From Escherichia phage KKP 3715, in sequence record OR067834.1: a DNA stretch of 64,000 bases, one strand, 5' to 3'. Below are positions 1-35,982 of this stretch, piece after piece. The first letter of the stretch is position 1. Each line of letters opens with the position of its first letter. The position numbers were made by a program, and so were the translations under genes. A model generated the notes under the pieces. It worked only from the letters and a program-made list of their open reading frames with translations. It did no database searches and was not told where the DNA came from.

Positions 1-246
1 TTCTTCAATACTTTTCTTACGCATAGTCTCGTTCATAGCTGTTTCTTCAGCTAATTTGTTTACGAATGTATGCATTTCTAATTTAGTACGAATGGCTTGT
101 TTCTCTGCCATAGTAGATACATATGAGTTAAGCATACCTACTGCTTTAGTAGCTGTGCCAAATGTATCTGCAACAGTAGTAGCAGCAGAGTTAACAGTAC
201 CCAGTAAAGTTCCTGCGGTCATACGTACAGTAGCGGTAGTAGTCAT
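1..246 (-). CDS. hypothetical protein, partial (gene runs off the left edge of the window)
   Basis: Minus-strand frame open from ATG (plus 244-246), preceded by a GGAG Shine-Dalgarno, to position 1 without a stop; translation begins MTTTATVRMTAGTLLGTVNSAATTVADTFG. Absent from the ORF track because truncated; track ORF 56..289(+) is its antisense shadow. Confidence 0.4.
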   Translation of the reverse strand, partial: MTTTATVRMTAGTLLGTVNSAATTVADTFGTATKAVGMLNSYVSTMAEKQAIRTKLEMHTFVNKLAEETAMNETMRKKSIEE

Positions 247-404
247 GATGATAGCTCCAATAGTTGATGATAGGACGACATGTCCATAACATGCGGAGCA
301 TGTGTAACGTGTAAGGTGGGGTAGGGTAGTGGCTACAGGGTCAACATACCGGGGGGGATGGTTGAGTGTAAGGGTGTAGCCCCAGCCACACCACTGTAGC
401 CATA

Positions 405-447
405 CATAGCTATCAACATTTTGACATGCAAAAATATCATAGCTATC
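405..447. promoter_or_regulatory. paired direct repeats CATAGCTATC (405-414 and 438-447, core ATAGCTAT is palindromic) flanking a perfect TTGACA hexamer (421-426); candidate operator/promoter
   Basis: Read directly from sequence in the intergenic gap between the stop of 448..774(-) and the start of the partial gene at 246. No convincing -10 element on either strand. Confidence 0.3.
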
Positions 448-774
448 TCACTTATAAGCAGTTAAATAGGAGGGAGCGTATACCAAATGGGGGGATTGTA
501 AGGCATCACTCATGATGAAGGTAAGAGTGTACTTATCTGTGTTCACATGCCAGGGGGAGTACATGGAGGATGACCACGGTAATGCCTTTCCTGGTTCTTG
601 TAGTTTTACAATAACTTTCCTGCCTAGTATTAGAGCCAAACCTCTCACTTCATGATGGGTTTGCTCATCTGGTACTAGGATAATGGGGGTGAGTCTACCT
701 GGTTCAAGGTCTTGCAAGGTTGTATGGATAGTGGGATTAGGTCCACCAGCATAACCTATCTTAGTTAATTTCAT
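448..774 (-). CDS. hypothetical small protein, paralogous family member A
   Basis: 108-aa ORF; contains IILVPDEQTHHEVRGLALILG, matching the shared motif of four neighbouring ORFs. Confidence 0.5.
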   Translation of the reverse strand: MKLTKIGYAGGPNPTIHTTLQDLEPGRLTPIILVPDEQTHHEVRGLALILGRKVIVKLQEPGKALPWSSSMYSPWHVNTDKYTLTFIMSDALQSPHLVYAPSYLTAYK

Positions 775-1085
775 TTAATATCCTTTAGTACCTGTTCAAG
801 AATGCTATCCATGTAATAGCAGTATGCTTCACTATTGCTACTGTTTATGGGCATACCAATATAGTCAAATACCCACAAGCAGAAGTGGTTTACTTCATGG
901 ATAAGAGTTGGCAATGGTTCCTTGAAAATACCCATAAGAACCTTATTGCCAGAGTAGGTAGTGTAACCCTTACAACCATCTATATCTGGTTCATATCCTT
1001 TGAGCTTCTTGTACTTTTTACGGAAGACTTCTATGTCATTAACTATCTCCAGGTGTACTGGATAGGGTGATGTGTTTAGTTTCAT
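771..1085 (-). CDS. small protein with HExxH (HEVNH) zincin-like motif
   Basis: 104-aa ORF with LIHEVNHFCLWVFDYIGMP; 4-nt overlap with the downstream gene suggests translational coupling. Metallopeptidase assignment rests on the motif only. Confidence 0.5.
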   Translation of the reverse strand: MKLNTSPYPVHLEIVNDIEVFRKKYKKLKGYEPDIDGCKGYTTYSGNKVLMGIFKEPLPTLIHEVNHFCLWVFDYIGMPINSSNSEAYCYYMDSILEQVLKDIK

Positions 1086-1405
1086 TAGAGGCTCTCGTCG
1101 CTAGATAAATATGAGGTAGAAGGGTAGAGGGTAATAAGTCTACCAGTAAGAGTAGTAGCTACCATAGGTTCACAGGAGGAGAAGATGTATACCCGTGCAA
1201 ACTCAGATACTTCAACCGATGTATCTATCTTAGTGAATGTAATAGGTATACCTAACATTAGACAGGAACCTATAAACTCATCAGCTTCTTCACTAGGTTC
1301 ATATAAAACGGTAGCACCATCCAGTATACCACTTAAGAAATCTTGCTTAGTTACCTTACTAAGATAGCAACTTGTACTTAATGCAATTAATGAATAGAAG
1401 TGCAT
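1085..1405 (-). CDS. hypothetical small protein, divergent paralogous family member B
   Basis: 106-aa ORF with TVLYEPSEEADEFIGSCLMLG, a weaker match to the family motif. Confidence 0.45.
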   Translation of the reverse strand: MHFYSLIALSTSCYLSKVTKQDFLSGILDGATVLYEPSEEADEFIGSCLMLGIPITFTKIDTSVEVSEFARVYIFSSCEPMVATTLTGRLITLYPSTSYLSSDESL

Positions 1406-1408
1406 AAC

Positions 1409-1723
1409 TTACTTCCTTACATAGTAGTAACGGTACTCACCCTTCTCATAACGACTCTCCCATTGGTATTCATCAGATACCAGCATGAAAGGTGTAGGGT
1501 CATTAGCATTGTGGTTTATATAGACAGAAGGCGGAACAAGACATACAACCTTACGGTTATTACCTGCTAAGAATAGTTGTCCTCTTACTGCATGGTAGTC
1601 CTCTAAGGTAGGAACCAGGATTACTTGATGAGGGTTGCTGTTCATGACTTCTTCTAAGGTGAAGTCAGTTGTGTACATGGACTCCCCTTTAACAAAACTG
1701 GGGACTGTCATTACGAATTTCAT
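1409..1723 (-). CDS. hypothetical small protein, paralogous family member C
   Basis: 104-aa ORF with VILVPTLEDYHAVRGQLFLAG; an internal Met (MYTTDF, start near 1678) would remove the overlap with the upstream gene. Confidence 0.5.
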   Translation of the reverse strand: MKFVMTVPSFVKGESMYTTDFTLEEVMNSNPHQVILVPTLEDYHAVRGQLFLAGNNRKVVCLVPPSVYINHNANDPTPFMLVSDEYQWESRYEKGEYRYYYVRK

Positions 1724-2087
1724 GATTGATTCTCCTTCCTTTAGGGATAGGCCTGAAGTAAATGGAAAGTGTCTTATTAAAGACGTTATGGTCAGCTATC
1801 AATTCCCAACCAGGTACTTTATAGAACCTAACTCCTGGGAAGAATATTTCGAAGTCTGCATACTCAGTAAGGTCGTACACAACCGGTTCAGTAAGTATAT
1901 GCGTATTGATTTGCAGGTTACTTAAGAAGAATGAACCAACTATCTCATGAGATTCTTCACAGTCAGGTAAGAATACTACTTGCTTATGAGTTAGGAACTT
2001 ACTAACCATCTCTGGTTCCCCCAGGTAGTAGGGGTCTTGTCCGTGTAGTACACCCGAAATGTCAATATCAAAAGCGTAGATGCTCAT
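1689..2087 (-). CDS. hypothetical small protein, paralogous family member D
   Basis: 132-aa ORF with VVFLPDCEESHEIVGSFFLS; ATG at 2087 preceded by GGAGG. Confidence 0.5.
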   Translation of the reverse strand: MSIYAFDIDISGVLHGQDPYYLGEPEMVSKFLTHKQVVFLPDCEESHEIVGSFFLSNLQINTHILTEPVVYDLTEYADFEIFFPGVRFYKVPGWELIADHNVFNKTLSIYFRPIPKGRRINHEIRNDSPQFC

Positions 2088-2100
2088 AATTGCATACCTC

Positions 2101-2139
2101 CAGAAAAAGAAATGGGGTAGAGCCTCTCGACCCTACCCC
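2101..2139 (-). terminator. intrinsic terminator (GGGGTAG/CTACCCC stem followed by U-tract on the minus strand)
   Basis: Plus 2114-2120 ggggtag pairs with 2133-2139 ctacccc; minus-strand transcript continues AUUUCUUUUUCUG. Sits between paralogues E and D. Confidence 0.5.
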
Positions 2140-2288
2140 TTACCGTTTTCAATCACGGGTCAGTTCATCCCCCTAGGTACTTATGTACCGTTAGACCTAC
2201 GGAGTAGGAAAGGAGCCGGGGAACCCTGACTGTAGAAGTTATTAACTCTTTACGAGTACCGCCACTGTCTACTAGGCGGTATGACTAA

Positions 2289-2579
2289 TCACATCATCAC
2301 CGTCATCCGAACGCTATCTTTGCTTCGTTTGATGGAGACACTATGAGGTAATTTTGTGAAGAACACAAGAGCTGAAAAACGTTTTTCTAAAGAGTAAGTT
2401 TCTCTTGGTTCTAGAATCTTAATACCTGGACGATTCTCTAACAGCATCATCCCAGCTAATTCATGATAGGTATCTTCATCATGTGTAATGATAATATCAT
2501 CCGGTAGAATACCAGCCTTGGTGTAGTCTAGCTCTTTGTATTCATCTTTAGAGTCGAGGACTCTCATATAGATTCTCAA
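2289..2579 (-). CDS. hypothetical small protein, paralogous family member E
   Basis: 96-aa ORF with IIITHDEDTYHELAGMMLLE; TTG start at 2579 with AAGGAG 7 nt upstream. Confidence 0.5.
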   Translation of the reverse strand: MRIYMRVLDSKDEYKELDYTKAGILPDDIIITHDEDTYHELAGMMLLENRPGIKILEPRETYSLEKRFSALVFFTKLPHSVSIKRSKDSVRMTVMM

Positions 2580-2750
2580 AGGTTACTCCTTTTGGGAATA
2601 GGGTCATCGGAACATTACATACTATTTAGTATCATGAACTTTTTCTATATCATGACTAAAGTGTAACTGTGTGATAGAGTTTCTTCAAGGGGTATCTCAC
2701 CCCAAGAAAAGAATCTTCGTTAATAGACATAACTTTGTAGAGAGATAAGT

Positions 2751-3440
2751 ATGAGTGAGCTAACTAAGCAGCAGATCATTAATGCCCTACCTGCTAACTT
2801 CAAGAACAGTGTTAGTCAGGAATTGGTAGACACAATTAACAACATAACCCAAGACCAACTGGTTGCTGAAGCATTCCGTGAAAACTTCATCTCTTACTCT
2901 GGTGTTATGAAGGAAGGTAAGTTTAAGACACAGGACTACATGAATGCAGTTCAGTATGTGACTTACAAACACATGGGCTACTCAAATAAGGAAGCCTACT
3001 TCAAAACATTCCCTAACCGACAAGCAGAACTCATAGCACGAGGAACCAGTGAGAAAGATATTAGTGCTTATGTATCTGCTTATCACAGAGGTAAGTTAGT
3101 TAACCTCATCATGGAACAAAGTTTGGTTCCAGTGTGGATTGTGAACCAAGACAATTATCAGAAGGCAATCAATGTTCAGGTTGAACTAATGACTACAGCA
3201 GCAAGTGAGAAAGTAAGATGTGATGCAGCTAACTCTATCCTTACTCACTTAGCTAAACCTAAAGACCAGGTGACTAATATCAATCTGGACCTGAGAGAAA
3301 ACTCTGGGTTGACTGACCTCAAGGCAACACTTGCTGCATTAGCTGAACAGCAAATTAATGCAATCAATAGTGGTGTACCTACTAAAGAGATTGCTGGTTC
3401 TAAACTAGTACGTGCAGATGAGGACATTACAGATGTCTGA
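2751..3440 (+). CDS. hypothetical protein immediately upstream of terminase large subunit; possible small terminase subunit
   Basis: 229-aa ORF overlapping the terminase start; position only, no diagnostic motif. Confidence 0.5.
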   Translation: MSELTKQQIINALPANFKNSVSQELVDTINNITQDQLVAEAFRENFISYSGVMKEGKFKTQDYMNAVQYVTYKHMGYSNKEAYFKTFPNRQAELIARGTSEKDISAYVSAYHRGKLVNLIMEQSLVPVWIVNQDNYQKAINVQVELMTTAASEKVRCDAANSILTHLAKPKDQVTNINLDLRENSGLTDLKATLAALAEQQINAINSGVPTKEIAGSKLVRADEDITDV

Positions 3441-35590: not shown

Positions 35591-35826
35591 TAGTGACTTT
35601 AACGCAGTCAACGAGGCAGGCCGTCAAACTACTATCACTACAGGGTTAAGCGACCATGGGTTGATAGCCCGATAGTAGTAAGACGTAGGTTTGGATTTCT
35701 AAGTGTTACCTTCACTAGCGAAATTCCCGTCGAGGGGAATAACAATACATTAGCAGCCACTGGACTGTCTTACCAGTGTTGTCTTTAGAGTGCTGTGCAA
35801 TCAGGACTATGTTACTGCTGAATGGG

Positions 35827-35900
35827 TGTCCACTACTGGATTTGAACCAGTGACCTTCTGATTATTAGTCAGTTGCTTTCCCAGTCTAAGCTAAGTGGAC
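35827..35900 (-). tRNA. tRNA gene (cloverleaf parsed by eye; anticodon loop reads CUAAUAA, i.e. anticodon AAU, Ile-like; identity uncertain)
   Basis: Minus strand: acceptor GTCCACT/AGTGGAC, D-arm GCTT-AGACTGGGA-AAGC, anticodon stem ACTGA/TCAGA, T-arm ACTGG-TTCAAAT-CCAGT, discriminator A; 74 nt. Confidence 0.6.
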
Positions 35901-35909
35901 ATAATATGA

Positions 35910-35982
35910 TTACCCGGGCAGGAATCGAACCTGCGTCCTAGTTAGTTTACTAGTGGGGCTTTACCACTAAGCCTACCGGGTA
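35910..35982 (-). tRNA. tRNA gene with atypical anticodon arm (4-bp stem with 8-nt loop, or 5-bp stem with 6-nt loop); identity undetermined
   Basis: Minus strand: perfect acceptor TACCCGG/CCGGGTA, D-arm GGCT-TAGTGGTAA-AGCC, T-arm GCAGG-TTCGATT-CCTGC; anticodon region CUAG-UAAACUAA-CUAG. Confidence 0.55.

Follow-up and report, generated by a model that had tools for sequence, protein, structure and literature searches.

A Schitoviridae-restricted family of small, fast-diverging proteins encoded beside the right terminal repeat of a G7C-like coliphage

In the interval that separates gp69 from the right terminal repeat, phage N4 carries gp70 and gp71, and phage G7C, in the same place and the same orientation, carries gp70, gp71, gp71.1 and gp71.2, all of them annotated as hypothetical. 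In the G7C record the N4-like flag is confined to gp70 and gp71, and the four are not stated to be one family. N4-like phages are abundant and have found therapeutic use. For gp70 or gp71 of N4 or G7C, literature searches turned up no published function, and they turned up nothing on the genes of this array in N4-like transcriptomes, in CRISPRi-ART or transposon essentiality data, or in accessory-gene screens. Here we describe the corresponding cassette of Escherichia phage KKP 3715 (record OR067834.1), in a stretch of 64,000 nucleotides (nt) that we call the window. Six minus-strand open reading frames (ORFs) fill positions 448–2579. Five of these, designated A to E, are real protein-coding genes and belong to a single family, confined to the Schitoviridae, whose founding members are gp70 and gp71 of N4; the sixth, X, is not a member. 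Compared with G7C, the window has A as an extra member of the family, and the unrelated X besides.

The first 6 kb of the window match 89 phage records, with nucleotide identities of up to 93%, and all 89 come from podophages of the G7C-like or N4-like kind (Escherichia, Shigella, Klebsiella and Erwinia phages). The window also encodes a 3,456-amino acid (aa) virion RNA polymerase, a terminase and tailspikes, and this gene content supports its identity: it is a G7C-like (Gamaleyavirus, N4-like) coliphage. It runs opposite to the conventional N4 map, as its reverse complement, and hence the array sits at the ‘right end’ of N4, with the gp69/terminase genes on one side and the right direct terminal repeat on the other. 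In G7C, a 1,160-bp region containing the terminal repeat comes after the four orthologs, and at the left end of the G7C genome the same region carries gp1, gp1.1 and gp1.2. Since gp1 occupies positions 145–468 of that region in G7C, and its homolog in the window runs from 246 to 1, the repeat begins at about position 390, directly next to the array. The ‘genome end’ at which a preliminary description of this DNA had placed the array is, more precisely, the stretch immediately internal to the right direct terminal repeat.

That description had pointed to five adjacent paralogs sharing a core motif. Five ORFs of 108, 106, 104, 132 and 96 aa do lie where it put them, all on the minus strand, and the motif strings that it quoted are present; their adjacency is interrupted once, where X (771–1085) splits A from B. 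The PHROGs database keeps the five apart, as five separate families of unknown function (7213, 9160, 11661, 12099 and 16338), each matched by its ORF over the full length at E-values of 7e-44 to 2e-61 (in the case of D, over residues 1–121 of 132). Cross-matches to phrog_16338 were found for C (E-value 0.0013) and for E.

The shared core exceeds chance. When Smith–Waterman scores were set against those of 500 shuffles, three pairs stood out strongly (A–C, z = 9.1; A–E, z = 9.0; C–D, z = 6.0), three more weakly (B–D and C–E, z = 3.6 each; D–E, z = 3.2), and three were insignificant individually (A–B, z = 0.8; B–E, z = 0.6; B–C, z = −0.3). Related loci were gathered by terminase similarity (n = 80, N4 included, with TerL identities from 99% down to 67%), and 5,480 ORFs of at least 45 aa, from 83 loci, were searched iteratively with a hidden Markov model (HMM) seeded by the five-member alignment. 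The search converged on 90 ORFs in 22 sources, 21 loci and the window, and all 90 lie on the same strand, upstream of gp69/terminase, in the orientation opposite to the late genes. In most of the more distant N4-like loci, with terminases still 67–74% identical, it found no sequence-level match to the family. When the profile was rebuilt without the orthologous group of a member, and that member was then sought with it, each was recovered—E at an E-value of 1.8e-12, D at 4.2e-9, B at 1.7e-5, A at 2.4e-5 and C at 3.2e-5—and the best ‘non-family’ matches of these profiles proved to be further small ORFs within the same arrays.

B is the divergent member and the weakest, and is moderately supported. 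It aligns with the family through its N-terminal core only (about residues 17–57), and a comparison of its group with the rest by hhalign gives a probability of 79% and an E-value of 1.5e-5 over 40 core columns, the motif region only. That some pairs, A–B, B–C and B–E, are insignificant alone is what would be expected if the motif were fortuitous, or if the ORFs were not genes. Other pairs reach z = 9, however, the leave-one-out E-values run from 1e-5 to 1e-12, every match occupies the same position and strand, the genes are under purifying selection, and a confident predicted fold is common to distant N4-like phages. We give coincidence a negligible probability, and regard the existence of a paralogous gene family as close to certain.

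Modeled with AlphaFold2 from an alignment of 87 sequences, E yields a confident structure (predicted local distance difference test, 86.8; predicted template-modeling score, 0.75): an N-terminal beta-hairpin, then a strand-loop-helix-strand unit bearing the motif, and four strands after it. Judged by such models, the family proteins share a small alpha/beta domain with a beta-rich C-terminal half. The model of B is confident for residues 1–60 only, and has the same strand-strand-strand-helix-strand order there as E; the hydrophobic N-terminus of B is modeled as beta strands, and none of the array proteins has membrane or signal features. In BFVD, a library of viral structures, E has strong matches (template-modeling scores of 0.85–0.88) only to uncharacterized proteins of Achromobacter N4-like phages, and weaker ones to several proteins each of Klebsiella phage KP8, Pseudomonas phage Zuri, and coliphages; phage KP8 contributed several family-like proteins to this search. 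The Foldseek top 10 for the B model consist of its own ortholog and then the same N4-like proteins that E matches. As far as predicted structures can tell, the family appears to have no relative outside N4-like phages.

Sequence searches are in keeping with the preliminary description, which had not recognized the family. Pfam and NCBIfam returned no meaningful match for any of the six ORFs, PADLOC returned none at an E-value of 1 or below, and a sequence-profile search of the PDB returned only noise (E-values of at least 0.08). The family is in no curated domain library among these three—Pfam, NCBIfam and PADLOC—and profile searches do not place it in any well-characterized housekeeping family.

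When lineages are weighted equally, the only residue invariant across the family is Gly43. Position 49 is either Asn or Gly, and the remaining conserved positions are hydrophobic. The motif reported for all five ORFs stands, then, as a family-wide core, with B moderately supported; its polar letters do not, for the His occurs in 46% of lineages, and the Glu in 25%. The isoelectric points (pI) of the five proteins are 8.9, 4.3, 5.9, 5.1 and 6.3. Conservation of the scaffold combined with a variable surface speaks against enzymatic function and against mimicry of DNA; because they are not strongly acidic, moreover, these proteins are not DNA mimics.

The array genes evolve quickly, as had been claimed of them. 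Median ratios of non-synonymous to synonymous substitution (dN/dS) among orthologs are 0.25 for E, 0.19 for D, 0.18 for C, 0.28 for B and 0.29 for A, against 0.022 for TerL, 0.025 for gp69 and 0.039 for gp67 in the same phages, and the dN of the array genes is 15–40 times that of neighboring core genes. The genes are under purifying selection, but selection about 10 times more relaxed than that acting on the adjacent core genes.

Copy number also varies, from one to six among related phages, with two in N4. The G7C-like phages keep the block E-D-C-B, and vary in A, in X, and in three further lineages of the family. One relative has only E and X; four related loci of a single clade (L013–L016) have four or five members, drawn from other lineages; and number and composition differ even among near-identical phages. 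A recent expansion is not borne out. Within-genome paralogs are no more than 46% identical, which rules out recent tandem duplication and makes the duplications old. What we see between phages reflects, instead, the gain, loss or exchange of old lineages.

These lineages do not stray far. With E as query, tblastn matched only N4-like phages, in 93 records (Escherichia, 64; Klebsiella, 11; Achromobacter, 8; Shigella, 5; Gamaleyavirus, 3; Pseudomonas, 2), and where those records are complete and linear the gene sits near their right end. Among 1.84 billion cluster representatives searched with the profile, no more than 18 proteins matched, 15 of them small (54–132 aa), and the 12 that were read are clearly family members. 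The other three are long repeat proteins that we judged to be spurious compositional matches; the one inspected, P0129, is apparently a cell-surface protein with Ig-like repeats (EEIQEVTGWELSEDKK...). One further occurrence is a curiosity. A G7C-like segment of at least 12 kb is present at about 2.70 Mb in CP043865.1 and JAJAOK010000001.1 (L084/L085), 2.76-Mb assemblies labeled Enterococcus faecium, and includes a tailspike, the terminase, the array in the order E-D-C-B-A-X, and the early genes beginning with gp1 and gp2. It is almost certainly assembly contamination.

Genes so placed might serve the DNA ends of the phage itself: in generating the terminal repeat, processing concatemers, protecting ends, or assisting gp69 and the terminase in packaging. 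This is the main rival to the function that we favor. From G7C-like phages to N4, E is always beside gp69/terminase, the two diverging from a shared control region that is highly conserved; the terminal repeat borders the array directly; and the homologs in Achromobacter phages, too, lie near the right end of their records. Proteins of the packaging machinery would hardly be expected, on the other hand, in one to six copies of variable composition among near-identical phages, with dN/dS some 10 times that of the terminase, with no polar residues conserved, and with no sequence-level match in most of the more distant N4-like loci. On balance we consider a role in DNA-end biology unlikely.

The pattern of evolution speaks, rather, for accessory proteins that bind other proteins. 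Whether they are accessory binders at all, rather than enzymes or structural proteins, we would put at about an even chance. Only a hydrophobic core, one helix Gly and one turn residue are conserved, while the surfaces diverge fast, and it is for this reason that we picture non-enzymatic binding modules. Each paralog would bind a different protein, of the host, of the host's defenses or, possibly, of a competing phage, and would do so in middle-to-late infection, since the right genome end of N4-like phages enters the cell last, after middle transcription (PMC3715699). That the targets belong to defense systems specifically is a tentative suggestion, rather doubtful as it stands. A more elaborate version, which leans on the predicted structures and to which we give slightly less credence still, is that gp70/gp71 represent a new, Schitoviridae-specific fold, diversified into a panel of inhibitors against different host factors, or against late-acting defenses of the abortive-infection type. 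Such a panel, if real, would be one source of the robustness, so far unexplained, that N4 and Gamaleyavirus show against host immunity. The BASEL papers report that these phages resist restriction by unexplained means (PMC11990801), but nothing links that resistance to the array.

The features that suit accessory genes, namely variability, fast evolution and late entry, would also suit proteins directed at other phages, in competition or superinfection exclusion, rather than at the host. The array proteins lack membrane or signal features, however, the hydrophobic N-terminus of B being modeled as beta strands, and nothing specific points to exclusion, which we think improbable.

The anti-defense or host-takeover function that the preliminary description thought typical of gene families like this one is plausible, and its interpretation is partly supported. 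Several observations weigh against it. Nothing in the results links the proteins to host takeover or anti-defense. The empty searches of PADLOC, Pfam, NCBIfam and PDB sequences are uninformative rather than supportive, and none of the solved anti-defense proteins resembles the predicted model; nor are the proteins strongly acidic (pI 4.3–8.9). E/gp70 is kept beside gp69 in N4-like phages of Escherichia, Klebsiella, Achromobacter and Pseudomonas, a position that looks more core-like than that of a typical anti-defense gene, and that would fit a part in the phage's own cycle. The end of the genome that is injected last is a poor site for immediate-early counter-defense (PMC3715699), and promoter scans assign the array to no promoter class or expression time.

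The cassette itself is compact and operon-like (Table 1). E comes first, followed by a terminator, and then by D-C-B-X-A, in which each stop overlaps or adjoins the next start. E begins with TTG, six bases after AGGAG, and with this start the protein regains the N-terminal M-[KR]-[IF]-Y common to the paralogs. Shine–Dalgarno motifs precede D, C and A, and a weaker one precedes B. The 3' end of D overlaps the start of C by 35 nt (1689–1723), B starts 3 nt past the stop of C, B and X share TAATG, and X and A share ATGA; the overlaps at either end of X suggest, from sequence, that translation of these genes may be coupled. D is 11 codons longer than its 121-position PHROG profile, and its ortholog in L007 has only 115 aa, from which we take the C-terminal tail of D to be variable.

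Table 1. Features of the array and its surroundings (window coordinates)
Feature	Position	Strand	Description
N4 gp1 homolog, 5' part	1..246 (runs off window start)	-	98% identical to a protein labeled Pfam Phage_N4_Gp1
A	448..774	-	108 aa; phrog_16338, E-value 8e-59; absent from G7C, present in some relatives
X	771..1085	-	104 aa; HEVNH (HExxH) motif; phrog_1365 (unknown function); not a family member
B	1085..1405	-	106 aa; G7C gp71.2; phrog_12099; divergent member
C	1409..1723	-	104 aa; G7C gp71.1; phrog_11661
D	1689..2087	-	132 aa; ortholog of G7C gp71 / N4 gp71; phrog_9160
E/D spacer, structured	2088..2288	-	folds better than shuffles, z = -3.0
Intrinsic terminator	2139..2114	-	just before D ribosome-binding site (terminator scan)
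CCTAC-TCC-GTAGG hairpin	2196-2208	-	in E/D spacer
CCGCC..GGCGG hairpin	directly after E stop	-	in E/D spacer
E	2289..2579	-	96 aa; ortholog of G7C gp70 / N4 gp70; phrog_7213, E-value 6.7e-44
E/gp69 divergent control region	2580..2750	.	conserved as far as N4 (17-phage alignment)
11-mer TTACACTTTAG	2656-2666		in E/gp69 region; unique in window
Hairpin GGGGT-N5-ACCCC	2686-2708		in E/gp69 region; unique in window

X shows no relationship to the five family members (Smith–Waterman against shuffles, pairwise z of 1.3 or less). Its homologs are confined to N4-like contigs, and its position within the array differs among relatives, in one of which (L010) it directly follows E. As a candidate HExxH zinc metallopeptidase it has the HEVNH sequence, accompanied by no match in Pfam or NCBIfam, and its PHROG is without annotation.

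The control region between E and gp69 could, by its sequence, hold a promoter, late or middle, or else a signal for packaging. It contains no sigma-70-like site at a scan threshold of at least 9 of 12 hexamer matches, and no sigma-70-like promoter was found upstream of E or of D. Neither its hairpin nor its 11-mer is like a sigma-70 promoter, and because these motifs recur nowhere else in the window they are assigned to no promoter family. Over positions 1–3000 as a whole, sigma-70-like sites are depleted (two found, against 9.2 ± 2.7 expected from shuffles), which is consistent with phage RNA polymerases and weak late promoters, and Rfam and tRNA scans of the same positions found no match.

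The stems of the E/D spacer are kept across clades as far as N4, though their sequences differ. One variant of the idea of an inhibitor panel would have the D-to-A genes form an operon with a hairpin promoter of its own, at 2196–2208, used by a phage RNA polymerase at the right end. As an N4-type virion-polymerase hairpin upstream of D, this element is a near-miss—it has A rather than G at −8, and its loop is not conserved—and we claim no early promoter here. Within the terminal repeat, about 45 nt upstream of gp1, a hairpin at 289–303 with a 6-bp stem, ACATGC-GGA-GCATGT on the template (+) strand, obeys the published rules for early promoters of the N4 virion RNA polymerase: a 3-nt loop, a central G, and G at −8. 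Far from the array, between the late and the replication modules, an adjacent pair of tRNA-like genes occupies positions 35823–35982 on the minus strand; one is a tRNA-Ile (anticodon AAT), and the other has an aberrant anticodon loop.

What is new here is that ORFs kept apart by PHROGs are joined as one family, with a predicted fold, a variable cassette and fast evolution. A small set of targets results: one conserved member, E, and a swappable D-to-A module. If these proteins turn out to be inhibitors, the repertoire of counter-defense or host takeover would gain a new fold; if they work in genome-end biology, a gap in our picture of N4 replication and packaging would be closed.

The predicted fold has some resemblance to the C-terminal, RecA-like domain of SF2/DEAD-box helicases. 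It has led us to consider that the proteins might be small regulators that bind nucleic acids, or that mimic helicases, in late transcription, replication or RNA metabolism. The similarity is below the level that supports homology, however, and the family differs from that domain in being about half its size, in having a single helix, and in lacking the helicase motifs. Motifs IV–VI, the arginine finger among them, were not found; there is no conserved Arg or Gln/His motif, and no match to Pfam helicase_C. Regulators of this kind, a suggestion that springs from the modeled structures, strike us as a poor prospect. To the anti-defense DNA mimics Ocr and ArdA, and to the solved Acr, Tad, Gad and Acb proteins, the family shows no similarity of sequence or of predicted fold, and it has no strongly acidic surface that could imitate DNA.

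Two other likenesses are closer in kind. Pseudomonas phage LUZ7, which is N4-like, has 29 small ORFan genes directly upstream of its right terminal repeat, their function unexplained (PMC3715699). The cluster and the array are alike in niche and in the small size of their genes; the likeness is one of position, and among Pseudomonas phages only the proteins of Zuri gave weak structural matches to E. The other likeness is to the fast-evolving accessory genes of variable regions that have core genes on either side, with roles in counter-defense and in triggering defense, described in bioRxiv 10.1101/2023.04.06.535777, the main text of which does not contain the terms ‘N4-like’, ‘G7C’ or ‘Schitoviridae’. 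The gp70/gp71 family is likened to these genes by a pattern of several parts: small size, fast evolution, variable presence, and clustering between conserved landmarks.

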